Assembly (NCBI GenBank): GCA_026395595.1
Contig: JAPLYL010000001.1
Span: 6,174-70,173, forward strand
Direction of reading: 5' to 3'
DNA from: Candidatus Parcubacteria bacterium
GTDB lineage: Bacteria > Patescibacteriota > Minisyncoccia > Phycocordibacterales > CAIJYI01
DNA: 64,000 nucleotides
Every line of letters starts with the position of its first letter. Positions within the stretch are counted from its first letter, which is position 1. The position numbers and the translations under genes are program-made. Under the pieces are notes generated by a model. It searched no databases and was not told the DNA's origin. It was given only the letters and a program-made list of their open reading frames with translations. Positions 1,511 through 25,113 of the stretch are shown piece after piece.

Positions 1511-4192
1511 TTAACCGCCGGAACCGTTACACATCCAAACATAGTTTGCCATTGAGTCGGTGGTGTCAAAGAATGTTCCTCTTACGCAAGTATTATTAAC
1601 GGAAGTATTGCATAGCCCGTTAACAAGCGAAGTTACTGCAATTGTATCTGTTTGCCCGAGATAAGTAGCCGTAACCGTAGCCGTATTCGCGCTTTTTCCA
1701 ACAATCCACCCCTTATCTGTAATCGTATTCGTAACCGTAGCGACCCCAGCGGCGCTACTTGTCCAATTTGAAGACATGGTTACATCGATTGCCCCCGGAT
1801 GAGAAGAGCATTTAGCGCCAACTCCATACCATCCAATAGCCTGTATTCCCGTCTCTCCTACAGCAACAGTGGTCGTGAATGGACAAATAACAAATGTTGC
1901 CACATTTACCGTAAAAGGCACCCACTCAGAGGTGGCAGGATCTGTTACGCTGTTATCTTTTGTTCTTACTTTAAAAGTATAGGCACCCGAAGTGGCCCAA
2001 GTATGAGCCGTTTCTTGTATGGTTGCAGGAGTAACATATCCTGATACTGGAATAATTCCATCGGATACTCCATCGTCATTCCAATCAAATTGGTAGTATA
2101 CGTTATTTCCTTCTGTATCAGGGGCAGAATGAACATAAAAACCAACTGATTGCCCTTTACTCACCGTAATAGGCGAACCATTTCCTGAAAGGTTGGTAAT
2201 AATCGGAGGCTGAGCAGTGTTAGGAAGTATGGTTACTGTTACTGAGTCACTAACGGAAACACCAATCGAATTTGAACAGGTCATAGTGTAAGTGGTACTA
2301 GTGGTTATACCTCCGGGAGTAATTCCGGTGGAATTACTCCGATTTCTTGTCGTACTATTCCATTCAGTATCACCCGAAGAAACGCATGGATATTCAGAGT
2401 TAGTAGACGACCATGTAAGCACCGTGCTGTTTCCGGAAATGACAGAAGTCGGTGTAGCTGTAAGAGTAACGGTTGGATTCGGAACAACGGTCACTGTGAC
2501 AGACGCGCTAGCGTTGACACCTGCGGAATTGTGGCAAGTAAGAGTGGACCACTTGAGAATGGTGTTCGTTCCCGTTGCGATAGAAGATGGTGTTGCCGTA
2601 AGACTCACGGTTGGCGGCGCGACGCAAGCGCTTCCATCCCATGCATATCCAGTATTGCAGGAGAATTCACATTTCGCGACGGTATTAGGATCAGCGTAAG
2701 AGTAGTTAGTGGCGACTATAAGTCCGGTGAGATTAGTGCCGGTGTAAGCAGTTCCATTTGTTGGGACCGTTCCTCCACAGACGTATGGGTCTCTTGATGC
2801 GCTGCAAGAAGCAGTGTTGCCAGTGTTTACGCCAGTACAAGTCCATGTAGCGCTAGAACCAGCAGTCGGGAATGTTGGGAGAAAACCAGTTCCTGCTGAA
2901 CAAGCGGTATCAATACCAAAAGAAGTAACGCTTGAAGCATATGCTTTGTTGTTAGCCGTTCCACAAGCACCGTTGACCGGGATAAGAGCGGTTACTGTTA
3001 CTGAGTCGCTAGCGGAAACACCAACAGAATTGGAACAAGTAAGGGTGTAGGTAGTATCTGCAGTAACGACAGAACTAACTCCGGTAGCGTTATTGAGATT
3101 GCGAGTATTTCCTGTCCAGCCGCCAGTAGAAGTACAAGGATAAACACCACCAGTAGACGACCAAGTAAGCAAAGTACTATTCCCTGTAACAACAGAAGTC
3201 GGCGCAGCCGTAAGAGTAACGGTTGGATTCGGAACAACGGTAACTGTTGCGGAAGCGCTGGCAGTAACGCCGGCTGAATTATGACACGTAAGGGTGTAGG
3301 TGGTGGTTGTAGTGATACCGGTGACAGAATTCCCTGTTGTCAGATTTGATTTTATCTTTGTTCCGCTCCACGTTCCGCCTGATGCGGTACAGCTTGTGTT
3401 ATCAGAGACATTGGTAGTATCCCAAGTAAGGAGAGTGCTTCCATTCGGAGAGATAGAAGATGGTGTTGCCGTAAGACTCACGGTTGGCGGCGCGACGCAA
3501 GCGCTTCCATCCCATGCATATCCAGTATTGCAGGAGAATTCACATTTCGCGACGGTATTAGGATCAGCGTAAGAGTAATTAGTGGCGACTATAAGTCCGG
3601 TGAGATTAGTGCCGGTGTAAGCAGTTCCATTTGTTGGGACCGTTCCTCCACAGACGTATGGGTCTCTTGAAACAGTACAAGAAGCATTCGTTCCAGTATT
3701 TATGCCATTACACGACCAAGTAGCAGTGGAACCTGCGGCGGGAAAAGTTGGTAGAGAACCAGTTCCAGAAGAACAAGCCGTATCAACACCATAAGAGGTA
3801 ATCGTAGAAGCATACGTTTTGTTGTGAGCCGTACCGCAAACGCCGTTTACCGGGATAAGAGCGGTTACGATCACCGAACCGCTAGCGGAAACACCAACAG
3901 AGTTGGAACAAGTAAGGGTGTACGTTTTGTTCGCATTAACAACCAAACTGACCCCAGTACTATTAGAGCGGCTCCGGCTGGTGCTATTCCAGTCGGTTGA
4001 CCCAGAAGAAGTGCAGGCACCGGTCGTATTGGTTGACGACCATGTAAGCACCGTGCTGTTTCCGGAAATGACAGAAGTCGGTGTAGCTGTAAGAGTAACG
4101 GTTGGATTCGGAACAACGGTCACTGTGACAGACGCGCTAGCGTTGACACCTGCGGAATTGTGGCAAGTAAGAGTGCCAAATATGCTCCGCAA
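1511..4192 (-). CDS. Large secreted repeat protein with Ig-like (Big_2/PKD-like) modules and ~290-aa internal tandem repeats. The reading frame is separated from its probable signal peptide by a frameshift at an A7 tract; possibly phase-variable or a pseudogene.
   Basis: The 893-aa ORF has a repeated module TLTCHNSAGVxASASVTVTVVPNPTVTLTATPTSV...TWSST (3 copies) and a Cys-rich module VCGGTVPTNGTAYTGTNLTGLIVATNYSYADPNTVAKCEFSCNTGYAWDGSACV (2 copies). The C-terminal region resembles Big_2. The ORF begins at TTG with no signal peptide in frame. Confidence 0.75.
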   Translation of the reverse strand: MRSIFGTLTCHNSAGVNASASVTVTVVPNPTVTLTATPTSVISGNSTVLTWSSTNTTGACTSSGSTDWNSTSRSRSNSTGVSLVVNANKTYTLTCSNSVGVSASGSVIVTALIPVNGVCGTAHNKTYASTITSYGVDTACSSGTGSLPTFPAAGSTATWSCNGINTGTNASCTVSRDPYVCGGTVPTNGTAYTGTNLTGLIVATNYSYADPNTVAKCEFSCNTGYAWDGSACVAPPTVSLTATPSSISPNGSTLLTWDTTNVSDNTSCTASGGTWSGTKIKSNLTTGNSVTGITTTTTYTLTCHNSAGVTASASATVTVVPNPTVTLTAAPTSVVTGNSTLLTWSSTGGVYPCTSTGGWTGNTRNLNNATGVSSVVTADTTYTLTCSNSVGVSASDSVTVTALIPVNGACGTANNKAYASSVTSFGIDTACSAGTGFLPTFPTAGSSATWTCTGVNTGNTASCSASRDPYVCGGTVPTNGTAYTGTNLTGLIVATNYSYADPNTVAKCEFSCNTGYAWDGSACVAPPTVSLTATPSSIATGTNTILKWSTLTCHNSAGVNASASVTVTVVPNPTVTLTATPTSVISGNSTVLTWSSTNSEYPCVSSGDTEWNSTTRNRSNSTGITPGGITTSTTYTMTCSNSIGVSVSDSVTVTILPNTAQPPIITNLSGNGSPITVSKGQSVGFYVHSAPDTEGNNVYYQFDWNDDGVSDGIIPVSGYVTPATIQETAHTWATSGAYTFKVRTKDNSVTDPATSEWVPFTVNVATFVICPFTTTVAVGETGIQAIGWYGVGAKCSSHPGAIDVTMSSNWTSSAAGVATVTNTITDKGWIVGKSANTATVTATYLGQTDTIAVTSLVNGLCNTSVNNTCVRGTFFDTTDSMANYVWMCNGSGG
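2290..4190 (-). repeat. Intragenic tandem DNA repeats (period ~870 nt) within the surface-protein gene.
   Basis: Near-identical ~120-nt blocks at 2581-2700 and 3451-3580. Identical spurious antisense ORF peptides recur (2292..2699 vs 3300..3572; 2305..2487 vs 3871..4116). Confidence 0.7.
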
Positions 4193-4257
4193 AAAAAGAT
4201 GAAAAGCAGAACAACAAAAGAAAAACTTTTTTTGAGTTGCGAATAAAATATACGCAT
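4123..4257 (-). other. 45-aa ORF encoding a classical signal peptide (MRIFYSQLKKSFSFVVLLFIFFCGAYLALLLATIPQVSTLA...). It is in the -1 frame relative to the repeat protein and is probably the displaced N-terminus of that gene.
   Basis: Hand translation from the ATG at 4257 (minus strand). One extra A in the A7 tract at 4191-4197 would fuse it in frame to the 1511..4192 ORF, giving ...LLFIFFLRSIFGTLTCHNSAG... Confidence 0.5.
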
Positions 4258-4370
4258 AGACTTTTTTATTTTTTAAAAATAGTTAACATCCTCGCCGACA
4301 TCAAAAAGTATCTGTGATTCTTTTAATTATATCACAGGAGTAAAGAAAAAAGATGTGACTTATCCACACA

Positions 4371-4406
4371 AAAAACCGTTTCAGTTTAAATCTGAAACAG
4401 TTTTTT
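4371..4406. terminator. Bidirectional Rho-independent terminator.
   Basis: Stem CCGTTTCAG/CTGAAACAG with loop TTTAAAT. There is a T6 run on the plus strand and a T-run on the minus strand (the complement of AAAAAA at 4371-4376). It sits downstream of the 4432..5187 gene. Confidence 0.6.
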
Positions 4407-4431
4407 AATTTATACAAACGAAATAAAAACT

Positions 4432-5187
4432 CTATGGAGTATGTACTCCTCCTTTAATGTTCAAGTTTCTCACCACGAGAGCTCTTGGATCCGTCGTTCC
4501 CGTCAAAAGGTTAGCTTGAATTCTTACTTTGTCGTTTTCCGCCCAAAGAGCGCTGTAGGTGGATTTTGTGTTGCGTTCATAATCCATAAAAAGAGTCGGG
4601 ATGCAACCGGAATCTGTCAAAGCGCAGTTGACTACCGACACAGTATAGGTCTTGACAGGAGAATTTGAAACCACTGTATTGCCAATAGCCACGACACTTC
4701 CGGTAAGAGTAAAACCATTAGGCTGATTGCTTGCATTCTTTACAATACCCGTCATCACCCCATCAATAATCACGGAATCCAAGGTTGCGGTTTTTTCAAT
4801 AGTCCAATCATGTACATAGTTTGTCTTAACGACACCGGAAGAGTTCATGGTCCCGGTAAGACCGATCATATCTCCTGCATTGAATTTTTGTAGCAATGAG
4901 ATTACGGTATCACCGGCAACTTGCGTATACCCGTCAATAGCGATACTCCCTTTTTTTAATACAGAAAAATCAATGGTATAATCCTTAGCCCACGAAGTAA
5001 TGGTAAAAGCAGTATCAGCATTGGAGATAGCCGTTTTAAGCGTTCCTCTCATCGTCGTTGCTCCAGTCGTCCCGATAGAGATTACCGGCACAGCTGTCGG
5101 CGGAGTATATGGTATAGCAAGGACGGAAATCGATCCGAACAACGACATGATTGCAATAATCGTAATGGCAAATAGTTTTTTATTCAT
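4432..5187 (-). CDS. Secreted hypothetical protein with an N-terminal signal peptide (MNKKLFAITIIAIMSLFGSISVLA).
   Basis: 251-aa ORF with a clear signal peptide and a Thr/Gly/Val-rich beta-like composition. No family recognised. Confidence 0.6.
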   Translation of the reverse strand: MNKKLFAITIIAIMSLFGSISVLAIPYTPPTAVPVISIGTTGATTMRGTLKTAISNADTAFTITSWAKDYTIDFSVLKKGSIAIDGYTQVAGDTVISLLQKFNAGDMIGLTGTMNSSGVVKTNYVHDWTIEKTATLDSVIIDGVMTGIVKNASNQPNGFTLTGSVVAIGNTVVSNSPVKTYTVSVVNCALTDSGCIPTLFMDYERNTKSTYSALWAENDKVRIQANLLTGTTDPRALVVRNLNIKGGVHTP

Positions 5188-5305
5188 AGAATAAAGTATT
5201 TTTTGTTTTAGTAGTAAATAATATCTGTTACTTTTTTGTTAATCATAGTATAACATCTATTTTTTTTGTAACAAACAAAAAAAACAAAAACTTATCCACA
5301 GAGTC

Positions 5306-5656
5306 TTACACTCGAGGGTAAACGATATTTACCCCCTGTGGTCCGTCATAATTTCCGAGAGTATTTTGCATAAAACCGATAATTCCCCAAATAGTAATGA
5401 GAACAAACAAAGCGACCACCCCCCATACCATGATATTTTTTCCTTTTTCGTTGGCGTTTTTATCCTCTTGATTAAGGAGAAATAAAGCTAATCCGTAAAA
5501 GAAGGCAACAAAAGCAAGAGTTCCGAAGATATTTATGAGGGATAATGTTACCGATAAAAACATATCAAGAGTCGTTCCAAGAGTAGTAAAACCAGAGACA
5601 GCAAAAGGAACAAAAGAGAGACTGCCTATAAAAAATAAAAGCATGTTTTTTTTCAT
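5306..5656 (-). CDS. VirB2/TrbC-like (T4SS pilin-like) small membrane protein, paralog 1.
   Basis: 116 aa. Signal peptide, hydrophobic helix FFYGLALFLL, a charged loop (EDKNANEKGK), then MVWGVVALFVLITIWGIIGFMQNT. This is a typical two-helix pilin architecture and is near-identical in its C-terminus to paralog 3. Confidence 0.55.
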   Translation of the reverse strand: MKKNMLLFFIGSLSFVPFAVSGFTTLGTTLDMFLSVTLSLINIFGTLAFVAFFYGLALFLLNQEDKNANEKGKNIMVWGVVALFVLITIWGIIGFMQNTLGNYDGPQGVNIVYPRV

Positions 5657-5729
5657 AGGTTAATTATAACAACGGTTCAATAAAAAAACAAACCGCCATA
5701 ATGACAGTTTGTTTTTTTCTAAATTTTTA

Positions 5730-6002
5730 CTAATTTGAGGGGATAGAGACTCCTTCTGGTAACGTAATGCCAAAAGTTCCAATAATGAGTCTCATGATCC
5801 CAAAAACACTGATCATGATAAACATTCCCAAAAGACCCCACACCATATGCCTCTGTCCTATGGCACGATCGGCAGGACTGCCGGCGATATAATATCTTGT
5901 CATTCCATAAAGGAACAAAATAGTCGCGAGAACGAACAAGAACCCAATAAAAGGATTGAGGATATAGGTGTTTATCTTCAAAAGAAGCTGATCAATGTTC
6001 AT
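5730..6002 (-). CDS. VirB2/TrbC-like small membrane protein, paralog 2.
   Basis: 90 aa with an ATG start at 6002. Motif FLYGMT...HMVWGLLGMFIMISVFGI. Confidence 0.5.
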   Translation of the reverse strand: MNIDQLLLKINTYILNPFIGFLFVLATILFLYGMTRYYIAGSPADRAIGQRHMVWGLLGMFIMISVFGIMRLIIGTFGITLPEGVSIPSN

Positions 6003-6022
6003 AAAACGGTAATTTCAGTCTC

Positions 6023-6421
6023 TTAGATAGTGATATTAATGAGTCCGCCACCGGTGGTATTGCTCGGGGTAACGTCAGGAAGAGTAAGAGTCTGTGTTCC
6101 GGTCGGTCCTCCGACATTTCCAATAGTGTTCTGCATAAAACCGATAATTCCCCAAATGGTTACCATAACAAACAAAGCGAGAACGCCCCAGATCATGATG
6201 CTTTTTCCTTCCTTGGCTTTGTCTTCATCTCCGGCTGCCAAAACGTACATGGCCAATCCCCAGAAGAAGAATACAACGACGAGAGTGGAAACAATCGGAA
6301 CAAGCATATTGACGATAGTTCCCACCAATCCGACAAGACCCTGCAAATTTCCCGCTGTATTTTGAGCGGAAGCGATAAATGGCGCAGCAAACGCACCGAG
6401 TACTATGAGTATTTTTTTCAT
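6023..6421 (-). CDS. VirB2/TrbC-like small membrane protein, paralog 3.
   Basis: ATG at 6421 (MKKILIVLGAFAAPFIASAQ signal peptide). Motif FFFWGLAMYVLAAGDEDKAKEGKSIMIWGVLALFVMVTIWGIIGFMQNT, ending in a Gly/Thr-rich tail. Confidence 0.55.
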   Translation of the reverse strand: MKKILIVLGAFAAPFIASAQNTAGNLQGLVGLVGTIVNMLVPIVSTLVVVFFFWGLAMYVLAAGDEDKAKEGKSIMIWGVLALFVMVTIWGIIGFMQNTIGNVGGPTGTQTLTLPDVTPSNTTGGGLINITI

Positions 6422-6545
6422 ATGAAAAATGTTATACCTTATAATTTTAATAAATAAAAAGAATGAATACACATTCTATTCTCTTTAATTGTATCAGATA
6501 ACGGAATGAGGGCAAATAAACGTGTGGATAAGCAAAGAAAAACGT

Positions 6546-6830
6546 TTATGAACTTGATGGCAGTTGCGGAATAAGAAGAGGAGAAAGATTAAATGTGTTC
6601 ACCAAAACTCCGACGATCCCCCACAAAGTGAACATCACAAAAATTGCAACAATGCTCCACATCATCCATGCCTTTCCTTTCGTCCTTTTATCATCATCAC
6701 TAGTGTTGAAGATAAAAACAACGATTCCATAGAAAAACGCGGCAAAGGCGGCGGCAAAGAGCAACCCCATAGCCTTGGCGATAAGCCCGATAAAAAGATT
6801 CATAATGTCTTGAAAATTGGTCGGTGCCAT
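6546..6830 (-). CDS. VirB2/TrbC-like small membrane protein, paralog 4.
   Basis: 94 aa. Motif FFYGIVVFIFNTSDDDKRTKGKAWMMWSIVAIFVMFTLWGIVGVLVNT. Confidence 0.5.
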   Translation of the reverse strand: MAPTNFQDIMNLFIGLIAKAMGLLFAAAFAAFFYGIVVFIFNTSDDDKRTKGKAWMMWSIVAIFVMFTLWGIVGVLVNTFNLSPLLIPQLPSSS

Positions 6831-6860
6831 ATAGTTTAGTTTAGATAATAAAAGTAGTAT

Positions 6861-7292
6861 TTAACCGGTGGGCCCTCCTATCTGCGCGATCGTCCCGACA
6901 ATGGCATTCGCCAAAAGCCACGAACCGAAAAGAACCGCCGTTCCGATAACCGCCCACAGAAAAGCATTTTTTGCAGAGGTGAGTTTCGTTTCATTTCCTT
7001 GCGCGGTGAGAAAAAGAAATCCGGAATAAAGAATAAAGAACGTGGCAACAGGAACGCCTATTTGCAAAAGAATACGAAGAACACTCTGAATAAATTCGGG
7101 TAAAGAGTGAATATTCGGAGTAATCGGTTCAGCCGCCAAGTTTATTTTTGGAGGAGAATCGGCAAAAACTGATACGCCAGTAGAAAGTAACAAAACAACA
7201 AAAGCACCAACTCCAAATGTTCCGGACGGGGGTACAACCCCCGTCCGGCGACGAGCGATGGCTCTCTTTTCATTTGTCATTTCGTTTTTCAT
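6861..7292 (-). CDS. VirB2/TrbC-like small membrane protein, paralog 5 (longer N-terminal region).
   Basis: 143 aa. Motif FILYSGFLFLTAQGNETKLTSAKNAFLWAVIGTAVLFGSWLLANAIVGTIAQIGGPTG, with a C-terminal GG as in VirB2. Confidence 0.5.
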   Translation of the reverse strand: MKNEMTNEKRAIARRRTGVVPPSGTFGVGAFVVLLLSTGVSVFADSPPKINLAAEPITPNIHSLPEFIQSVLRILLQIGVPVATFFILYSGFLFLTAQGNETKLTSAKNAFLWAVIGTAVLFGSWLLANAIVGTIAQIGGPTG

Positions 7293-7455
7293 TGGAAATT
7301 TGAAATTTTATTACCCCCCCATCGACCCAATCGTATTTTGAAAAACTTTTAAGGTGTTTATATATTGATTTAATTATATCATATCAATAAAAATTTCGAC
7401 GAAGTTTATCCACAGAGTTGCACGTACTTGTTGAATGTAGCAAACGAATACTTGA

Positions 7456-7488
7456 CTTAACATAAGTTATATGTTAACTTATGTTAAG
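7456..7488. promoter_or_regulatory. Inverted repeat (11-bp arms CTTAACATAAG / CTTATGTTAAG, 11-nt spacer) overlapping a TTGACT -35-like hexamer. Candidate operator/promoter for the small plus-strand ORF.
   Basis: The arms are perfectly complementary and lie about 120 nt upstream of the ATG at 7606. Confidence 0.35.
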
Positions 7489-7681
7489 TTTGTTTTTGGG
7501 GTTATCTCAAAAAAAAGAATGGTTTCTTTGAAGTTTTTTTAATAAAACGATAAATTTCATTAGAAATTTTAACTCTACAAAGTGAAAATTCACAAGAGGC
7601 ATACAATGATTAATTCAGAATACTACCACAACAAAGGCGAACAAGATGGGGTAGAAGGGCCTTGTAGCTACGATCCCCCCA

Positions 7682-7849
7682 ATGAAAAACTTTGATTTTG
7701 ACTTTGACTACAAAGAAGATTACGATGCGGGGTGGTCTTATGCCAGAGGTCAGTATGATTATAATAATGATTGCGGATACAAACCCCAAGGCAATGAAGA
7801 ATCATACGACGAGGGCTGGGAAAACGCAAAAGAACAAGATGACGACTAG
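7682..7849 (+). CDS. Small acidic Tyr/Asp/Gly-rich protein (MKNFDFDFDYKEDYDAGWSYARGQYDYNNDCGYKPQGNEESYDEGWENAKEQDDD). The upstream ORF 7606..7695 (MINSEYYHNKGEQDGVEGPCSYDPPNEKL) is probably its frameshifted N-terminus.
   Basis: Hand-translated, below the ORF-track size cut-off. It is the only plus-strand gene inside the minus-strand pilin array and is followed by a clean terminator. The two ORFs overlap at a C6 tract (7675-7680), and deleting one C fuses them. Confidence 0.45.
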   Translation: MKNFDFDFDYKEDYDAGWSYARGQYDYNNDCGYKPQGNEESYDEGWENAKEQDDD

Positions 7850-7862
7850 ATAGTTAAGCTGT

Positions 7863-7892
7863 GACCACAATTGAAAAATTGTGGTCTTTTTA
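7863..7892 (+). terminator. Rho-independent terminator (stem GACCACAATT/AATTGTGGTC, loop GAAAA, T5).
   Basis: A perfect 10-bp stem followed by TTTTT on the plus strand. Confidence 0.65.
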
Positions 7893-7908
7893 TATTTCCC
7901 TATTGCAT

Positions 7909-8244
7909 TTACCCACCAAGCTGACCGATAGTGTTTTTAACAATCGTTGCTACAATGATGGCGGACAATATGACTATGGCTCCGATAAAGCTTCCGACGA
8001 GCCACCCTCTCGCTATTTTTAACTTCCCAGGGTCGCCGCTTGCGGATACAAACAGATATCCGGTCCAAATAAAGGCGAGCGTAATAACGGGGATGCTGAT
8101 TCGTATCACGATATTCAACATCGCGGTTACGAATTCAAACAGCGTCCCCACTGCAGGCGTCGGAGAGGTAAGTTTGGTTACTCCTTGTGCAAAAGATACG
8201 AGGGGTAACAAATAAAGCGCGGTGATGTAAAAAAACTTTCTCAT
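7909..8244 (-). CDS. VirB2/TrbC-like small membrane protein, paralog 6.
   Basis: 111 aa. Signal peptide, then FIWTGYLFVSASGDPGKLKIARGWLVGSFIGAIVILSAIIVATIVKNTIGQLGG. Confidence 0.5.
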   Translation of the reverse strand: MRKFFYITALYLLPLVSFAQGVTKLTSPTPAVGTLFEFVTAMLNIVIRISIPVITLAFIWTGYLFVSASGDPGKLKIARGWLVGSFIGAIVILSAIIVATIVKNTIGQLGG

Positions 8245-8251
8245 ACATAGT

Positions 8252-9556
8252 TTATTGCGTTAAAACGCTAAAATCGGCTTGCAGTTTCCCTACCGCATCA
8301 ACGACCGTTGATTTTCCTGAGGAAATGGATTCAACGGTTTGTTGAAAGAGTCCATCAGTGAGTTCCGGACGAAGATCAAACCACGTTTTGCTTATCAGAG
8401 CGGAATCATAAAAGACTTTCATAAAAGGATTAGCGGTTCCTTTTGCTAAAACAGAGCGATTAGGGGATGGGGTTGCCAAGGTAGAAGAAATATACTCGCT
8501 GTATTTTGAAGAAGAAAAGATTTGCGCCGTATACAGAGCCAACGATTTGTTCGGCGAGGTCTTCATGGTTGCCAATCCGCTCACTCTTCCAAAAGCAGAC
8601 CTATTGGCGGAATCGCGCACTTGAGGAACCAAAGCAACATCAAAATTCAAATTCGGGTTTTTTGCCTGAATGGAAGAAATTTCGCTCGCGTAACCGAAAT
8701 ATATCGCCAGCTTCCCCGCTATAAATAAATTCTTTGATTCCGGTAATGAACGATTCCATGAATACGCCATATTGAGAGGGTCTGCAAAATCAGTATAAAA
8801 ACGAAAAACTTCGCTTACTGGCGGAATCCTTTGTTCGTTTGAACCCATGAATACGGGAAGGAAGACGTTTCCCGTTCTGCGTACAACCATCGGGTTGCCG
8901 GTCTGGAGCATAAGCATAGCGAGAATATCTTTTGCATGCGTTACGTTGCGAAATTCTCCAAAGGCCACCGCACTCTGCGAAATCTCTTTTGACTCGCTCT
9001 TTTTGGTTAAGACGGGACTCAACGTAAGAAACTGATCCCAGTATTTCGGAGGTTCAACAATACCGCCACTCGTAAATATGTCTCTATTCCAATACATAAC
9101 CATCGGATCAACAGAAAAAGGCAAAGCAAGAATTCCCTCGCCCGGTTGAATAAATATCTCCCCTGCCTGTATAAACGTATCGCGGAAGGTTCTTTCGGTA
9201 TACATCGCCGGAGTAAAAAGTTCTATTTTGTCGGAAAAACGAACAATCAGATCATTCGGAAGAATAACCATATCCGGCCCCTTCCCTGCCGCCAACGCCT
9301 CAATGATGTTGCTGGCAAAAGTGGCTGAATTTTTGGGGACATAGGTAATGTGAATGTCCGAATAATCCGGTGAAAAATACTGTTGCAGAAACTTATCCAT
9401 GTTCGCTTTCGGCACGGTTCCCCACATCGTCAAATTTCCGGTAATTTTTGCCGTGCTTGATGCTCCTGGTTTCGGAATGATTCCCGCGAAGGAAAACAAA
9501 CCGAGAACAGCCAGGGCTCCAAATACAATAGTGATGATGAGCTGGATATTTTTCAT
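8252..9556 (-). CDS. Extracellular solute-binding protein (ABC-transporter substrate-binding, family 1-like).
   Basis: 434 aa. N-terminal TM/signal anchor MKNIQLIITIVFGALAVLGLFSFAG, with size and composition typical of sugar-type SBPs. It lies 7 nt downstream of pilin paralog 6. Confidence 0.5.
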   Translation of the reverse strand: MKNIQLIITIVFGALAVLGLFSFAGIIPKPGASSTAKITGNLTMWGTVPKANMDKFLQQYFSPDYSDIHITYVPKNSATFASNIIEALAAGKGPDMVILPNDLIVRFSDKIELFTPAMYTERTFRDTFIQAGEIFIQPGEGILALPFSVDPMVMYWNRDIFTSGGIVEPPKYWDQFLTLSPVLTKKSESKEISQSAVAFGEFRNVTHAKDILAMLMLQTGNPMVVRRTGNVFLPVFMGSNEQRIPPVSEVFRFYTDFADPLNMAYSWNRSLPESKNLFIAGKLAIYFGYASEISSIQAKNPNLNFDVALVPQVRDSANRSAFGRVSGLATMKTSPNKSLALYTAQIFSSSKYSEYISSTLATPSPNRSVLAKGTANPFMKVFYDSALISKTWFDLRPELTDGLFQQTVESISSGKSTVVDAVGKLQADFSVLTQ

Positions 9557-9570
9557 AGTATAAAAAGTTT

Positions 9571-9609
9571 TTACAAGGGCGTACCCTTTTACAAGGTACG
9601 CCCTTGTAA
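9571..9609. repeat. GC-rich palindromic element (15-bp perfect stem TTACAAGGGCGTACC / GGTACGCCCTTGTAA, 9-nt loop). Same family as the element inside uvrB.
   Basis: It shares the 13-mer ACAAGGGCGTACC and its complement with 22923-22963. It is intergenic, between the SBP start and the methyltransferase stop. Confidence 0.6.
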
Positions 9610-9613
9610 ATAA

Positions 9614-10180
9614 TTATGTTTTGTGACAAATAAGAATCATACCGTAATGATATTCTCCTGCGGGAGCTTCCTGAAGGAAAACAAAACCTTGTTCTTCAAA
9701 CATGGCGCGAGCAATATCTTGAGAAACGACGGTTTCTTCTTTCGGGCCGACATTACCGAAACTTCCCGCCCAATCAACAAGCAAAAGTTTTCCGCCATTC
9801 TTCAAAACGCGCTTTATTTCCAGAACAGCCGTGTGTTTATCTTCCGTTTGAAAAAGCGTATTGGCAAAGATAACCGCATCAAGCGAAGCCTCTTTTATTT
9901 TTGACCCGCCAATCTCTTCAATGTTTCCCCAAAGAATCTCAACGTTTTTGAGGTGCTCCGCATCTACTTTTTTTATAATCAAAGGAAGCAATTCTCTTTG
10001 TATTTCCACGGCATAAACTTTTCCACTGTGAACATATTTTGTCGCCGCAACGGTAAAAACGCCTGATCCCGCGCCAAAATCGGCAACGAGAGAGTCATCA
10101 AGCAACAAGAGAGGTTTTATCGTTTCTTCAGGATTGAGCATCATAAATACAGTATAGCAAAGATGCAAACTCCACGCCAA
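9614..10180 (-). CDS. Class I SAM-dependent methyltransferase.
   Basis: Motif I VADFGAGSGVFTV, plus post-I acidic and LLLVDW motifs. The true start may be the internal Met of MMLNPEE. Confidence 0.7.
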   Translation of the reverse strand: MAWSLHLCYTVFMMLNPEETIKPLLLLDDSLVADFGAGSGVFTVAATKYVHSGKVYAVEIQRELLPLIIKKVDAEHLKNVEILWGNIEEIGGSKIKEASLDAVIFANTLFQTEDKHTAVLEIKRVLKNGGKLLLVDWAGSFGNVGPKEETVVSQDIARAMFEEQGFVFLQEAPAGEYHYGMILICHKT

Positions 10181-10200
10181 GAATACTGTGGAAAGCTTGC

Positions 10201-10254
10201 CGGAGAATACACAGGACTACCCTGTGTACACAGGGTAGTCCTGTGTATTCTCCG
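10201..10254. repeat. Perfect 54-bp palindrome CGGAGAATACACAGGACTACCCTGTGTA|CACAGGGTAGTCCTGTGTATTCTCCG, built from nested TACACAGG/CCTGTGTA units around a central TGTACA.
   Basis: Exact reverse-complement symmetry read from the sequence. It lies between the methyltransferase start and the uvrC stop, with no flanking T-tract. Confidence 0.8.
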
Positions 10255-10411
10255 CCAGACGTGGGTGACCTAATTTTGACCTAAATTTTAATGACCGAAG
10301 GGAATATAAAATTGGAAATGCTCTTGTGGTAAAAGAAGCGAAGCGACTATTAAAATGAAAATACTCCTATAGTGCTCTGACCCCGGCGGCGGATCGAGTA
10401 AATGTTGAAAC

Positions 10412-11614
10412 CTACATCTTCCCTCTTAATTTTTTGTGATACGCAATCGCGAACCGATGGGCTTCGCTGTTGCCGAGGAGTATTTCTTTTTCGTGCAAAC
10501 GCGCGAGTTTCTGGTCTCCGATAATGTTACGCGGCCGATGATGTTCGTCTTTGACCACGCCGAGAACCGGGATGGTATAGCCATACTTTTCAAGCAACCG
10601 ATCCGCCACATTTTTCTGTGCCAAACCGCCGTCAACGATGATCATTTTCGGAAAAGGCCATTCAGAGTGTTCAAGACGGCGAGATAACATTTCGCCAAGA
10701 TTTTTAGTGTCATTTACTCCTTCTCCTTTTATTTTGAATTTCCGGTATTCGCTTTTCTTCGGTTCGCCATTTTCCACAACCGTCATCACTCCCACCATAA
10801 AAGCCCCGCTTATATGAGCCACATCATAACATTCTATCCTTATTTCACTTGGCGGTTTCACCGTCAAGTGATTATTGCGTTTTAATAAAGAAACATCTTG
10901 AATATGAGAAAGAGCGAAGATCGTTTTTTTCACTTCGTTTGCTTTTTCAAATTCTTCTTTAACGGCAAAAGTTTTCATTTCTCTTTCCAGTTTTCCGATA
11001 AGGCTTTTTTTCTTGCCTTGGAAAAAAAGCGCGATGTTTTTTATATTTTTCGCGTACTCTTTTTTAGATACGGCGCCGGAACAAACGCCTGGACACAGTC
11101 CGATTTGCGCATTAAAACAAGGTTTTCCAGAATTCGGGGTACAAGTATCACGAAAAGAGAAAATCTTTCGCACGATTTTCATCGCTTCTTTTAACTGCCC
11201 GCCGTGAATAAACGGCCCGAAAAAGTAGGCGTACTTTTCAGGTTCCAACACTCTTTCTCTTACGAGAAGAACCCTCGGGTATTCTTCTTTAGTAATAACC
11301 ACATAATTCCAAGTTTTATCGTCTTTGAGGTCGGTATTGTGCTTCGGCTGGTATTTTCTGATAAGTTCCGCTTCCAGAATAAGCGCTTCCAAAACGGAAT
11401 CAGTTTGTTCATAATCCACTTTTACTGCCAAATCCAGCATTTGTGCGATAATAGGTCCGCGAGTCGTCAAAATATCCTTGCTGAAATAGCTCCGAACGCG
11501 GTCGCGCAGAGACGTTGCTTTTCCGATATACAGAATAGTCCCGCGGGTATCCTTAAAAAAATACACGCCAGGTGTATCGGGTAATTTCTTGATCTGTTCC
11601 GTTAAGGTTGACAT
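10412..11614 (-). CDS. uvrC: Excinuclease ABC subunit C (short form, 400 aa).
   Basis: GIY-YIG motif (GVYFFKDTRGTILYIGKATSLRDRVRSYF), a UvrBC-interaction region and an RNase-H-like endonuclease region (IECYDVAHISGAFMVGVMTV). Start set at ATG 11614 (MSTLTEQIKKLPDTPGVYFF). Confidence 0.8.
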   Translation of the reverse strand: MSTLTEQIKKLPDTPGVYFFKDTRGTILYIGKATSLRDRVRSYFSKDILTTRGPIIAQMLDLAVKVDYEQTDSVLEALILEAELIRKYQPKHNTDLKDDKTWNYVVITKEEYPRVLLVRERVLEPEKYAYFFGPFIHGGQLKEAMKIVRKIFSFRDTCTPNSGKPCFNAQIGLCPGVCSGAVSKKEYAKNIKNIALFFQGKKKSLIGKLEREMKTFAVKEEFEKANEVKKTIFALSHIQDVSLLKRNNHLTVKPPSEIRIECYDVAHISGAFMVGVMTVVENGEPKKSEYRKFKIKGEGVNDTKNLGEMLSRRLEHSEWPFPKMIIVDGGLAQKNVADRLLEKYGYTIPVLGVVKDEHHRPRNIIGDQKLARLHEKEILLGNSEAHRFAIAYHKKLRGKM

Positions 11615-11681
11615 TTTAGTATTACCGTGATAGTATACAACCAGATTTGATTTTTTACAACCCCAACAAAAGAGAGACATC

Positions 11682-11960
11682 ATGTCAGTAGTAAACAAAA
11701 AACTTCGCCTTTCAAACGAAAAGGCAACAAAAGAAACCATTCATTATCTAAATGAAAAACTCAGAATTGCACACCTTGTCAACAAAGAAAAAACAAATGC
11801 CGTTGATAAGATAGTGTCAACACTTATAATTGCGATATTAAATGATCTGTTAGTTGGAATTCATGTCTTAACGAAAACACAAGAAGCGGATCATTACGAA
11901 ATCATCCACAATAATTATGTAAATGCGCTTGCCGCCGAATTCCCTGATTTAGTCTTGTAG
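11682..11960 (+). CDS. Hypothetical small protein (92 aa).
   Basis: ORF followed by a terminator at 11969-12004. Confidence 0.5.
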   Translation: MSVVNKKLRLSNEKATKETIHYLNEKLRIAHLVNKEKTNAVDKIVSTLIIAILNDLLVGIHVLTKTQEADHYEIIHNNYVNALAAEFPDLVL

Positions 11961-11968
11961 GAGACACG

Positions 11969-12004
11969 AGCCCGTTCTGCATTTTCGCAGAGCGGGCTTT
12001 TTTA
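11969..12004 (+). terminator. Rho-independent terminator (AGCCCGTTCTGC...GCAGAGCGGGCT + T6).
   Basis: A 12-bp stem followed by TTTTTT. Confidence 0.65.
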
Positions 12005-12061
12005 CATTGATAATTCTAGAACCTGAATCCGAAAACCCAATTTTTCCGCACAAAACCCAGT

Positions 12062-12140
12062 TCGTCATCCCGTGCAGGGACACGGGATCCACGTAAGAGG
12101 TGTTAACGACGTGGATACCGGGTCAAGCCCGGTATGACGA
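12062..12140 (+). repeat. E-element copy 1. Structured GC-rich element: closing helix TCGTCAT/ATGACGA enclosing three hairpins (CCCGTG/CACGGG; CCACG-16 nt-CGTGG; ACCGGG/CCCGGT) joined by AT dinucleotides. Candidate four-way-junction ncRNA or MITE core.
   Basis: Read directly from the sequence. The same architecture occurs at 15533-15603 and 60139-60215 with compensatory stem changes. Flanked by the imperfect inverted repeat TTCTAGAACCTGAATC (12014-12029) / GATTCACAGTCTAGAA (12154-12169). Confidence 0.6.
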
Positions 12141-12171
12141 CGGGTAGTTTTCAGATTCACAGTCTAGAAAC

Positions 12172-12200
12172 TTGACAAAAACTGTTAATTGTTATAAGAT
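12172..12200 (+). promoter_or_regulatory. Sigma-70-like promoter (TTGACA, 17-nt spacer, TAAGAT).
   Basis: Hexamer match and spacing, upstream of the ATG at 12256. Confidence 0.45.
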
Positions 12201-12255
12201 ATACACAGTAATACACTTTGTATCTTTACAACATTATTTTGAAAAGGAATTGCAC

Positions 12256-12627
12256 ATGAGGGGAGAAACCGGAATATACGATAATCCAACGGGGGTGTTG
12301 CTATTGACTCACCTGCCGTCTCCACAACCAAAAGTAAAAATAGACAAAGCAAAATTGCTCTATAGCGTCGCAATAATGCATAAAATGGCGATAGCTGATA
12401 AAGCAGAAAGAAAAAATGCAAAATATCTCGAACGTCAAGCGTTCAATCCAAGCGGAAAAGACACAGAAACCCGCTCGCAAATACAAATGATTGTGTCCAA
12501 CGATATCGTTTATTGGATAACCTCTTTGGAAGCAGCAAAAAAGGCCGCAAGAGAAGCCTGCGAAAAGGATCTCGGAAATTTGAAATATCTCAAGTTCCTC
12601 GCTGAACTTGAAGAAATAATCATCTGA
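12256..12627 (+). CDS. Hypothetical protein (123 aa from ATG 12256; the ORF-track start at 12172 is a TTG inside the promoter).
   Basis: ORF with an AGGA ribosome-binding site upstream. No family recognised. Confidence 0.5.
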   Translation: MRGETGIYDNPTGVLLLTHLPSPQPKVKIDKAKLLYSVAIMHKMAIADKAERKNAKYLERQAFNPSGKDTETRSQIQMIVSNDIVYWITSLEAAKKAAREACEKDLGNLKYLKFLAELEEIII

Positions 12628-12810
12628 ATAGTTCTAAATTTAAGTAAAACAAAAACTTTTAACCCTTTTCATTAACAAACAAACAAAGGCCCGATTATTT
12701 CGGGCCTTTTAATTTTATCTTATTAACAAAAAAGAATTAAGAAAAAAGCAACAAGCAAAATGAAGTCATCCTTTTTGCTTTTTTCTTATTGCTTTTTGCT
12801 TCAGCTAAAT

Positions 12811-13254
12811 CTAAAGTCCTTTGCAGTTCGCAGCAGGTGAGTACCCTGAGTTTTCAGCCTCTACTTTGGTATCAAACCAAATTCGGTTTTGTTTGGAAAT
12901 ACGGTTTGAGGAGGAACAGGTCGGGAGATAGTATTTTGTACCATTTTTTGAGGCGACATAGGTTCCTGAAGTTTTGACGGGTAAGGCTTTCGGTGTTGTG
13001 GTTGCAAAAATCCCCAAAAAGGCGCTCGCTTCCTGTCCTTTTGGAAATTCTATGTCTATATTTTTGTTTACGGTTTCCAGACCTGATAGTCTTCCCAGTC
13101 CAAAAGAGATAAGAGCCGTTAAAATCACAAGAATCGTCAAAAACGTGTTTTTTTCCAAAAGTCCATCAAAGTCCAAATACCCCTTGATTTTTTCCCGTAT
13201 TTCTTCTATACTCATAGTCACTGTATGGTAACACGTTTTTGATGGCGTTTCCAT
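12811..13254 (-). CDS. Membrane-anchored protein with a C-terminal Ada-like metal-binding domain.
   Basis: TM helix FLTILVILTALISFGL. C-terminus YVASKNGTKYYLPTCSSSNRISKQNRIWFDTKVEAENSGYSPAANCKG fits the Ada_Zn_binding pattern (kYH.p.C...I...N...F.t..eAe..Gy.Pa..C). Confidence 0.45.
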   Translation of the reverse strand: METPSKTCYHTVTMSIEEIREKIKGYLDFDGLLEKNTFLTILVILTALISFGLGRLSGLETVNKNIDIEFPKGQEASAFLGIFATTTPKALPVKTSGTYVASKNGTKYYLPTCSSSNRISKQNRIWFDTKVEAENSGYSPAANCKGL

Positions 13255-13292
13255 GCCTTTATACCACTAATAATCCATTATAATACAATACC

Positions 13293-13631
13293 ATGGCACA
13301 TAAGAAAGCAGGCGGATCCGCAAAGAACCTTACGGATTCAAAACCAAAGTACCTCGGAACGAAGCTCTACGCCGGACAGAAAGCGCAGGCTGGTTCCATT
13401 ATCGTTAGACAAAGAGGAACGGTCATCATGCCGGGAAAAAATGTCGGACTCGGAAGAGACCACACTCTTTACGCTCTCAAAGCAGGAGTAGTGAGTTTCG
13501 GTTCAAAAAGAAAAACGAATTTCAACGGAAAAGTAGCCGTCAAGAAAATCGCTCATGTTACTCTGAAAGAAGAGAAGGTAGCAAAGACAGCAAAGAAAAC
13601 TCCAGTCAAAAAGACAGTGAAAACAAAGTAA
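13293..13631 (+). CDS. rpmA: 50S ribosomal protein L27 with a Lys-rich C-terminal extension.
   Basis: [29 protein letters not shown]...IVRQRGT...[19 protein letters not shown] matches the bL27 signature. Confidence 0.9.
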
Positions 13632-24322: not shown

Positions 24323-24592
24323 ATGGAAACTGTACAATTTGAAGAACAACCCCGTATAGCAACCCACCAAAAGAAGGGAGCATTTTTACCGTCCCTCATT
24401 ATTAAATTTTCCCATGGAAAAGTTGAAAACGAAAATCAAGCAAATCTGGTTCTGTTTACCGGTGCTGTTATTATTTTCGTTCTCGCTTTCTTCGTCGCTT
24501 TTACAGGTGGAACAACCAAAAGTTCCTTGCCAGAGCCTCTTATTAAAACGGATATAGAAAGAATGATAAATCAACCAATTCCAAAAAAATGA
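24323..24592 (+). CDS. Small membrane protein (89 aa), co-transcribed with the type IV pilin (ATGA overlap).
   Basis: One TM helix (LVLFTGAVIIFVLAFFVAFTGG). Its stop overlaps the pilin start. Confidence 0.45.
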   Translation: METVQFEEQPRIATHQKKGAFLPSLIIKFSHGKVENENQANLVLFTGAVIIFVLAFFVAFTGGTTKSSLPEPLIKTDIERMINQPIPKK

Positions 24593-25113
24593 TAAAAAAA
24601 AGAAATAAGGGGTTCACTCTTATAGAACTTTTGGTTGTAATTGCAATCATTGCTCTTTTGTCTACAACAGTAATGACATCACTTTCCGCCGCACGCCAAA
24701 AATCCAGAAACGCAAAAAGAATGGCAGATATGAAGGCTATTCAAACAGCATTGGAAATGTACTACAACGACAACAATGGTTACCCAAATCCGGGAGGAGG
24801 ATGGAGATCCGAATGCAATTCATATGGAGGGTTTGCGGCAAATAATGTTATACCAGGACTAACCCCAACATATCTCGGAACTTTTCCATCAGATCCTTCA
24901 ATGAATAGAACCGGAAGCGTTAGCTGTTATCTTTATAATTCAAATGGAACAGATTACGCATTACTTGATCACAATGGTCCAGACATTGTTTACACATCAA
25001 ATTCCACACTCATTGATCCAACGCGTGACGGCGGTTCTAATCCCTGTATCATTGATGGAACAAACATATGGTCATGGAAAATATCTTCTTCTCCTGTCAG
25101 TCGTTGTTGGTAA
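24589..25113 (+). CDS. Type IV pilin / pseudopilin (prepilin-type N-terminal cleavage/methylation domain).
   Basis: N-terminus MIKKRNKGFTLIELLVVIAIIALL is the canonical class III signal peptide. Confidence 0.9.
   Translation: MIKKRNKGFTLIELLVVIAIIALLSTTVMTSLSAARQKSRNAKRMADMKAIQTALEMYYNDNNGYPNPGGGWRSECNSYGGFAANNVIPGLTPTYLGTFPSDPSMNRTGSVSCYLYNSNGTDYALLDHNGPDIVYTSNSTLIDPTRDGGSNPCIIDGTNIWSWKISSSPVSRCW

Follow-up and report, generated by a model that had tools for sequence, protein, structure and literature searches.

A locus in the genome of a Candidatus Parcubacteria bacterium raises the question of what six small, diverged genes for two-helix membrane proteins do when they stand side by side, and whether they encode pilins of the VirB2/TrbC kind known from type IV secretion systems (T4SSs). 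The locus lies in a window of 64,000 nt, by which we mean the whole stretch of DNA analysed (GCA_026395595.1, contig JAPLYL010000001.1, positions 6,174–70,173, forward strand). Its pilin-like array consists of six small co-oriented genes on the minus strand at 5306–8244, here called p1 to p6. An initial annotation had described them as consecutive VirB2/TrbC-like pilin paralogs, and its coordinates were exactly borne out by the open reading frame (ORF) list of the window. Homology searches showed that the six genes, as far as their sequences can tell, are diverged members of the TrbC/VirB2 pilin superfamily (PF18895), and that the array belongs to the VirB2-like pilin arrays already catalogued in Patescibacteria. 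In this Paceibacteria-type lineage the array was also shown to be the tail of a conserved module, which comprises, usually after a methyltransferase gene, a gene for a solute-binding protein, the proximal genes p6 and p5, and a variable number of distal genes (p4 to p1). We consider it probable that the diverged array behind the binding protein encodes subunits that co-assemble into a heteromeric, T4SS-built, pilus-like structure at the interface with a host cell.

The family assignment rested on profile searches. The T4SS_pilin family, PF18895, matched all six genes with E values from 3.2e-5 to 6.9e-11 and a coverage of 79–96% (56–68 of the 71 model positions). Measured against the curated gathering score of 26.6 bits, p5 (42.5 bits), p4 (36.9 bits), p3 (34.6 bits) and p6 (29.5 bits) were above the cut-off, and p1 (26.3 bits, E 7.8e-6) and p2 (24.4 bits, E 3.2e-5) were slightly under it. 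The TrbC/VirB2 family itself, PF04956, has a gathering score of 27.9 bits and was matched by a single gene of the window, p5, at 21.9 bits and E 2e-4, which is below the cut-off. Orthologues from about 60 species were then used for the family tests. Among the p5/p6-type orthologues PF18895 was found in 69 of 69 and PF04956 at E < 0.01 in 62 of 69, with a best E value of 4.2e-10; the p1–p4-type orthologues matched PF18895 in 96 of 96 cases and PF04956 in 1 of 96. When the two types were compared directly, hhalign aligned the p1–p4 type with the p5/p6 type at 98.8% and E 1.2e-16. The search with pilin profiles was thus positive for PF18895 in all six genes and for PF04956 weakly in p5 and clearly in most orthologues of the p5/p6 type, and together with the hhalign link this supports the VirB2/TrbC interpretation at the level of homology. 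The NCBIfam model NF045849 (Mycoplasma ICE pilin-like protein, where ICE stands for integrative and conjugative element) matched five of the six genes, the best being p2 at E 9.5e-8, with all matches below its 40-bit cut-off.

The family is a large one. Among 1.84 billion clusters at 50% identity, 43,903 representatives were retrieved at E ≤ 1e-3 and 9,326 at E ≤ 1e-10, and the 113 homologues of p3 were named by their sources 'pilin [Candidatus Paceibacterota bacterium]'. A survey of 3,035 Patescibacteria genomes with PF18895 and PF04956 (Quinonero-Coronel et al. 2025) found 441 arrays of 2–11 pilin genes; these were commonest in Microgenomatia and Saccharimonadia, and identity between pilins averaged 25% and reached at most 54% (PMC12102498). 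That survey accepted a Patescibacterial VirB2 at i-E < 0.001 and > 50% model coverage, values that all six genes of the window reach, and it counted as an array two or more pilin genes that stand in tandem or have a single non-pilin gene between them (PMC12102498). The six genes fall under this definition, since the 616-bp spacer between two of them holds at most a small opposite-strand ORF. Type IV pilins of the other kind (T4P), which have a class III signal peptide with a G|F...E motif, were considered as well and rejected, as PF07963 (N_methyl) matched none of the six genes. A separate T4P-type pilin gene with an N_methyl motif (E 1e-9) is found at 24589–25113 on the plus strand and is unrelated to the VirB2-like array.

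Within the array, p6 (7909–8244, 111 aa) occupies position 1 and p5 (6861–7292, 143 aa) position 2. Both are of the proximal, TrbC-like type B and fell into cluster 7 of the clustering described below; p6 carries a signal peptide and p5 a long one. The four genes that follow are distal-type paralogs: p4 (6546–6830, 94 aa, cluster 5) and p2 (5730–6002, 90 aa) are without a leader, p1 (5306–5656, 116 aa) has a signal peptide, and p3 has a signal peptide and a long Gly/Thr-rich tail. The longest ORF of p3 spans 6023–6472 and encodes 149 aa, or 132 aa when read from the ATG at 6421 (6023–6421, beginning MKKILIV...). A search of the 64 kb with a family hidden Markov model (HMM) returned exactly these six genes and no others. 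They are separated by gaps of 20–124 bp except between p6 and p5, where a spacer of 616 bp (7293–7908) splits the array, so that the description as a tandem array held for the presence of the six genes but not for an uninterrupted run. The short gaps and the single orientation imply that the array genes are co-expressed.

Pairwise identity between the paralogs was 20–45%, the upper value being that of p1 and p3, and the observation that only these two share a long identical block was confirmed (12 aa, TIWGIIGFMQNT). Gly-rich tails, which had been claimed for several of the proteins, are present in p1, p3, p5 and p6. The consensus quoted for the family (FFYG...GK..M.WG...TIWGIIGFMQNT) proved less general and fits p1, p3 and p4 but not p2, p5 and p6.

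The alignment showed a common plan, in which two hydrophobic helices (1 and 2) enclose a charged loop of ~12 residues, preceded by a short amphipathic stretch and, in some members, a signal peptide, and followed by a short tail. The hairpin that had been predicted is therefore present in all six proteins, but the signal peptide that had been predicted with it is not: an N-terminal signal-peptide-like segment is found in p1, p3, p5 and p6, and p2 and p4 begin directly at the hairpin. The signal peptide of p6 ends in VSFAQ and the protein has the C-terminus GQLGG. VirB2 has its cleavage site at Ala|Gln and Gly residues at its end, a pattern that p6 would match (VSFA|Q...GQLGG). 'F-A-Q' endings also recurred in many signal peptides of relatives, as judged by eye only. 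An AlphaFold2 model of p3, built with 57 sequences, contained helices at residues 2–18 (the signal), 26–61 and 66–100, with a 4-residue loop between the latter two and a disordered tail; the mean pLDDT was 78.8, and that of the hairpin was above 90. The loops of the six proteins hold 2–4 Lys/Arg, usually with one immediately before helix 2, which fits the topology of VirB2 with the N-terminus out, the loop in and the C-terminus out. We infer the same arrangement here, with both termini outside and the Lys/Arg-containing loop inside.

The order of the paralogs along the array was compared between species. The members of 81 arrays, the window included, were clustered and formed three groups: a type found at position 1 only, a type found mostly at position 2 (the TrbC-like cluster 7), and a multi-copy type from position 3 onwards. 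When arrays with five or more genes (59 arrays) were compared in pairs, the position of the best hit was collinear, with a mean Spearman coefficient of 0.86 vs 0.006 after shuffling. The first, second and last positions were distinct and sharply conserved types, and the middle positions interchanged. A Cys...Cys-x-[FWY]-x-D loop ahead of helix 1 is conserved in the position-1 type (L044, L081, L025, L045 and others). The window array is without this type; it has two genes of the second type, p6 and p5, followed by four of the distal type, p4 to p1. This conservation of gene order across species argues that the paralogs, to judge from their sequences, are specialised rather than interchangeable. 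It also led us to reject a recent burst of duplication, and the earlier view of an old family is supported by the order kept across the 59 arrays.

The gene that precedes p6 encodes a membrane-anchored solute-binding protein of the SBP_bac_1, sugar/CUT1 type (8252–9556, minus strand; PF01547 at E 8e-18, also PF13416), and its stop codon lies 7 bp before the start of p6. A profile of the binding-protein family compared with PDB sequences matched 4r9f 'MBP1' best, along its whole length (E 6.9e-15), with sugar- and maltose-binding proteins next. Residues of the N-terminal anchor are kept among relatives (F4 92%, Q5 81%, F12 80%, G19 80%, F23 96%), and the anchor is nearly as conserved as the globular part. 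Seven independent contexts reached through the p3 homologues had the same arrangement, with a methyltransferase gene, then an SBP_bac_1 gene, and the pilin array directly behind it. Relatives were then searched with the binding-protein alignment as query and one genome per species, which gave at least 591 genomes with a relative; the best 80 loci were analysed further, and Paceibacteria chromosomes with the module include OZ244961.1, OY970290.1 and CAWDSG010000002.1. Downstream sequence was available at 76 species-level loci, and at every one of them ORFs matching the pilin HMM started downstream of the binding-protein gene on the same strand, mostly at -11 to +77 bp relative to its stop. Complete arrays at these loci typically had 4–9 genes, and one locus had a single pilin gene. 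Among the best 80 loci, the binding protein was present in 80, a methyltransferase homologue stood directly upstream in 67, and gyrA was a neighbour in 63; the relatives came from Paceibacterota/Parcubacteria metagenome-assembled genomes (MAGs), including Lloyd-, Taylor-, Kaiser- and Zambryskiibacteria.

In the window, the usual upstream neighbour of the module is a gene for a class I S-adenosylmethionine (SAM)-dependent methyltransferase (9614–10180, minus strand; Methyltransf_11/25, E 6e-14). Between it and the binding-protein gene, at 9570–9610, there is a hairpin with an 18-bp stem and a T-rich run, the hairpin being present on both strands, and judged by its sequence it may end the methyltransferase transcript. 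Co-transcription of the methyltransferase and binding-protein genes is uncertain because this hairpin and T-run separate them. A conventional ATP-binding cassette (ABC) importer operon was considered and rejected: the binding protein is present, but neither the window nor the annotated contexts of the locus type yielded a permease (BPD_transp_1) or transport ATPase (ABC_tran) gene. No mention of the partnership between array and binding protein was found in the 2025 survey (PMC12102498), nor in the literature searched by Pfam family name, and it is an addition to the descriptions given there. In some relatives extra solitary PF18895 genes are found a few kb upstream of the module (L001 3961–4437, L033, L031), and in L001 and L009 beside uvrC.

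The best-scoring representatives of the family were single polypeptides with one signal peptide followed by 2–7 leaderless hairpin units and linkers of ~20–30 residues (P0234, P0240, P0257, P0260, P0282), and about 20 clusters of such fused multi-hairpin pilins were found. At the same locus as in the window, relatives had 4–6 hairpins fused behind a single signal peptide. Two of these fusions, in L090 (10001–11128) and L092 (10001–11107), stood in the order gyrA, methyltransferase, binding protein, three pilins, fused gene and one pilin; a third, in L091 (1777–3435), lay within a pilin array on a contig that ends upstream of the array. One fused relative was named by NCBI after the NF045849 protein. 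A MAG from another class, that of a member of the Peribacteraceae, had a fused pilin at a distance of 4 kb from a VirD4-like coupling protein, and no binding-protein gene was near it (L093, region 3437–13296). The fused gene was flanked on one side by the 837-aa VirD4-like protein with DPBB_1 and PG_binding_1 (cell-wall-binding) proteins, and on the other by a 691-aa protein with a PKD domain.

These fusions bear on both topology and assembly. The topology of a hairpin fusion works only when both ends of every unit are outside, and such a fusion implies that its units act next to each other in a single assembly. N-terminal ectodomains of 200–430 aa were found on some first- or second-position pilins (L032, L055 and the first two array genes of L029 and L037). 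In L032 (4722–6347) a subtilase domain (Peptidase_S8, E 3e-17) preceded the hairpin, and in L055 (11327–12460) the ectodomain was fn3 / purple-acid-phosphatase-N-like. A subtilase or fn3-like domain ahead of the hairpin places the N-terminus outside the cell, and in these proteins the hairpin appears, from the domain order, to serve as an anchor or display module.

Taken as a working model, each hairpin product would insert into the cytoplasmic membrane, four of them being cleaved by signal peptidase at sites that in relatives often read F-A-Q and two inserting without a leader. Every subunit would then be an alpha-helical hairpin with both ends outside and its Lys/Arg-containing loop inside. 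The subunits would not be alternatives to each other but would join in a set arrangement to form a single heteromeric, pilus-like structure exposed at the surface, a step that is proposed because the gene order is conserved and the subunits are naturally fused. The structure would most probably be built by the monoderm-type T4SS that most Patescibacteria encode elsewhere in the genome. It could serve for contact with a host cell or for exchange with it, and the binding protein might be a receptor, an adhesin or a partner in substrate capture. That a pilus forms, that it depends on a T4SS, what part the binding protein plays and the link to cell–cell attachment that the initial annotation had drawn are all inferred.

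Published work supplies the background for this model. The virB4 gene was detected 2,474 times in the dataset of 3,035 genomes, and pilin genes were near virB4 in 1,135 of 1,948 assemblies and away from it in 813 of 1,948 (PMC12102498). In Southlakia epibionticum, Wang et al. (2023) found by transposon sequencing (Tn-seq) that the T4SS cluster contains an essential series of predicted pilins (PMC10633639). These are SEML1_0014–0019, six PF18895 genes that are all essential and stand beside VirB6-like, PrgI and DUF87/VirB4 genes (PMC10633639). Kuroda et al. (2024) reported PF18895 genes among the most highly expressed secreted unknowns of Patescibacteria enriched with methanogenic archaea. A recent perspective calls the role of the Patescibacterial T4SS 'completely unknown' (PMC11665869).

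Several results weigh against the T4SS-built pilus. Two of the genes, p1 and p2, do not reach the PF18895 cut-off. A profile of the pilins compared with PDB sequences retrieved no pilin and only chance membrane matches, the best being FliL at E 0.008. Foldseek with the p3 model against the PDB gave nothing at E ≤ 0.001 and no pilin in its top 50; such a comparison with solved pilins is uninformative because a two-helix hairpin is too simple a fold to discriminate. An AlphaFold2 model of a six-hairpin fusion contained 12 helices with unreliable packing (pLDDT 61, pTM 0.38). Polypeptides with 8–14 transmembrane (TM) helices are also hard to square with extraction into a classical homopolymeric pilus and fit a membrane-embedded assembly equally well. 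As the initial annotation had stated, the window contains no VirB4/VirD4 ATPase or other T4SS core gene, the VirB4, VirD4, VirB6 and PrgI families having matched none of the sizeable ORFs of the 64 kb. T4SS core genes were likewise not found in ten annotated ±10-kb contexts of the locus type, and VirB4/VirD4-type families were not among the 25 commonest of the 51 Pfam families on 31 large ORFs near related loci, a count in which a rare VirB4 could be missed. Finally, no observation of a pilus of this type in any Patescibacterium was found in the literature consulted.

Some of these results also feed the main rival, a self-contained membrane complex that works independently of a T4SS, in which a heteromeric ring or channel of hairpins and the anchored binding protein would take up or sense host carbohydrates and only the fold and ancestry would be shared with VirB2. 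The linkage to the binding protein in all 76 loci, set against the lack of T4SS core genes in the annotated contexts, speaks for such a complex, and the conserved TM anchor of the binding protein suggests contact within the membrane. Fusions of 4–7 hairpins resemble polytopic membrane proteins, and the window offers the binding protein no ABC permease or ATPase of its own. The proximal type is, however, homologous in sequence to TrbC/VirB2 pilins, and the same family occurs inside the essential T4SS cluster of Saccharibacteria and near the VirD4-like gene of the Peribacteraceae MAG. Pilin genes away from virB4 are moreover common in Patescibacteria, as the 813 assemblies show, and a transporter built from such hairpins would be without known precedent. 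We therefore regard a T4SS-independent membrane complex as unlikely.

A broader proposal, to which we give only low credence, is that the hairpins and the anchored protein with its sugar-binding fold form one dedicated surface apparatus of Paceibacteria, with a fixed-order heteromeric conduit or stalk and the binding protein as a host-glycan receptor or substrate gate. If true, the essential Patescibacterial T4SS would have in this apparatus its end for nutrient capture or for attachment, or the apparatus might be an organelle independent of the T4SS, and in either case a pilin system coupled to a solute-binding protein would be without a described counterpart.

The second rival reads the array as a repertoire of interchangeable major pilins, diversified copies that would be used singly or in varying mixtures to suit host strains or to evade host defences, an idea put forward for the virB2 copies of Bartonella and Anaplasma and raised for Patescibacteria too (PMC12102498). 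The low identity between the paralogs, the variation in the copy number of middle genes between species (arrays of 4–9 genes) and the interchange of middle positions in the best-hit matrices are in line with it. So is the junction between p6 and p5, which was compared with L003, the closest relative, 96–98% identical to the window and with a 98% identical binding protein. Here p6 was a mosaic: it agreed almost completely over residues 1–70 and fully over the last 14, but its loop and helix 2 were replaced (7909–8047), giving 79% identity overall. The N-terminal 24 residues of p5 (7251–7292) had also diverged from L003. The spacer between the two genes, in place of which L003 has 38 bp, was unmatched in any other fetched locus. 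On the plus strand it contains ORFs at 7606–7692 (29 aa) and 7682–7849 (55 aa, acidic and rich in Asp, Tyr, Gly and Trp), with a terminator-like hairpin at 7863–7886 directly after the 55-aa ORF, and there is a palindrome with a 16-bp stem at 7454–7490. In a relative, L089, a 35-kb contig ends within p5, just past the junction. The sequences at this junction suggest recombination or strain variation, because p6 is a mosaic, the N-terminus of p5 has diverged and the contig of L089 breaks there.

Other observations do not agree with a repertoire. Dozens of species share the same orthologous types at the first, second and last positions, the short gaps and single orientation imply expression of the genes together, and the covalent fusion of 4–6 units in relatives forces their joint use. 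The orthologues of the array genes in L003 were 79–97% identical, most of them 91–97% (p2 97%), so that most paralogs are not hypervariable between close strains. A repertoire of alternative pilins is for these reasons rather improbable. That the six genes are spurious ORFs or unrelated small hydrophobic proteins, with Pfam matches that reflect only TM composition, is very improbable and effectively refuted by the conservation data, since the weak side matches to unrelated membrane families (Ion_trans, FixQ, MgtC), the two genes below the PF18895 cut-off and the failure to retrieve a solved pilin stand against the tens of thousands of homologues, orthologues 79–97% identical in close relatives, a gene order collinear across species, PF18895 in every orthologue of both types and PF04956 matches down to E 4.2e-10.

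The preferred reading, a heteromeric pilus-like structure built by a T4SS, can be set beside systems that are already known. The Patescibacterial VirB2 arrays are alike in their tandem PF18895/PF04956 genes with low identity, in their chromosomal location in an ultra-small bacterium and in their range of 2–11 genes per array (PMC12102498). They were described differently, in that the survey placed pilin genes relative to virB4 and mentioned no solute-binding partner, and in that it read the paralogs as possible host-range variants, whereas the order and the fusions found here point to co-assembly (PMC12102498). SEML1_0014–0019 of S. epibionticum are also six consecutive PF18895 genes, for proteins of ~125–140 aa of which some match PF04956 too, and they are the only member of this kind with experimental data, being essential in Tn-seq (PMC10633639). 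Those pilins lie inside a T4SS cluster without a solute-binding protein; in contrast, the array in the window follows a binding-protein gene, and for at least 55 kb in one direction and 5 kb in the other there is no T4SS core gene.

Gram-negative TrbC/VirB2 proteins (RP4 TrbC, Agrobacterium VirB2) share the signal peptide, the two hydrophobic helices and the short loop, and their family PF04956 is seen weakly in p5 and down to E 4.2e-10 in its orthologues. They are single-copy, whereas here there are many diverged paralogs in a monoderm, without an adjacent virB operon and with two of the six lacking a leader. The virB2 clusters of Bartonella and Anaplasma phagocytophilum (via PMC12102498) resemble the array in that virB2 copies are tandemly amplified and diverged, but they are part of virulence T4SSs in intracellular Proteobacteria, with antigenic variation as their presumed function, in contrast to positions that are conserved across species and sometimes fused. 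The Mycoplasma ICE protein Mbov_0395/MMCAP2_0565 (NF045849) is likewise a small two-helix membrane protein of a monoderm conjugation (MPF-FATA) system; it is single-copy and located within an ICE, and the matches in the window are all below 40 bits. CUT1-type ABC solute-binding proteins (4r9f 'MBP1', maltose-binding) share the SBP_bac_1 fold and full-length similarity with the head protein of the module, which differs in its conserved N-terminal TM anchor, in the pilin genes that always follow it and in having no permease or ATPase genes found with it.

In the one species tested the Patescibacterial T4SS proved essential, and pilin arrays are its oddest feature, because monoderm T4SSs, to our knowledge, are normally without pilins. 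The array in the window is itself no new kind, but its locus type gives three handles on such structures, namely the binding-protein partner, the conserved order of subunits and the natural fusions. The ligand of the binding protein could reveal what the structure touches or takes up, and the order and the fusions argue for one heteromeric structure rather than antigenic variants.

The surroundings of the module in the window are partly peculiar to this lineage. The remaining genes of the window are housekeeping genes (uvrC, uvrB, rpoB, rpoC, rpoD, dnaG, tRNA synthetases, ribosomal proteins, SMC and others), and a tRNA scan and an Rfam scan of the window gave no match. The initial annotation had placed the array within a larger surface locus flanked by a repeat adhesin-like protein, an anchored protein and a secreted protein on the left and the solute-binding protein on the right. 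This stood for the right-hand side, where the binding protein is the conserved partner, but the left part turned out to be lineage-specific, as its three genes are not conserved in more distant relatives. The nearest of them, downstream of the array and outside the conserved module, encodes a secreted 251-aa protein (sec251, 4432–5187, minus strand) that has a signal peptide and no Pfam or NCBIfam match, and an exact-sequence look-up of it gave no record; the copy in L003 is 81% identical, and the gene is absent downstream of the array in L001, L005, L007 and L008. The 485+-aa protein to the left of the repeat protein also has a signal peptide and no Pfam match.

Of the adhesin-like repeat protein, only a weak PKD_4 match (E 0.0078) was recovered, PKD being also the domain of the 691-aa neighbour of the fused pilin in L093. 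Its 893-aa ORF (1511–4192) lies ~1 kb downstream of the array, with sec251 in between, and contains a 147-nt unit repeated at 99% identity (2400–2546 vs 4029–4175) and a 300-nt unit of which two copies are 92% identical. The ORF starts inside a repeat at a TTG codon, has no signal peptide and has a G+C content of 47.5% vs ~39% on either side; the gene may be truncated, or the assembly may have collapsed here. On the other side of the module, close relatives carry a 652-aa gene without a Pfam match between uvrC and the methyltransferase gene (L003 78–2036 and L089 7222–9180), where the window has only ~230 bp (10181–10411).

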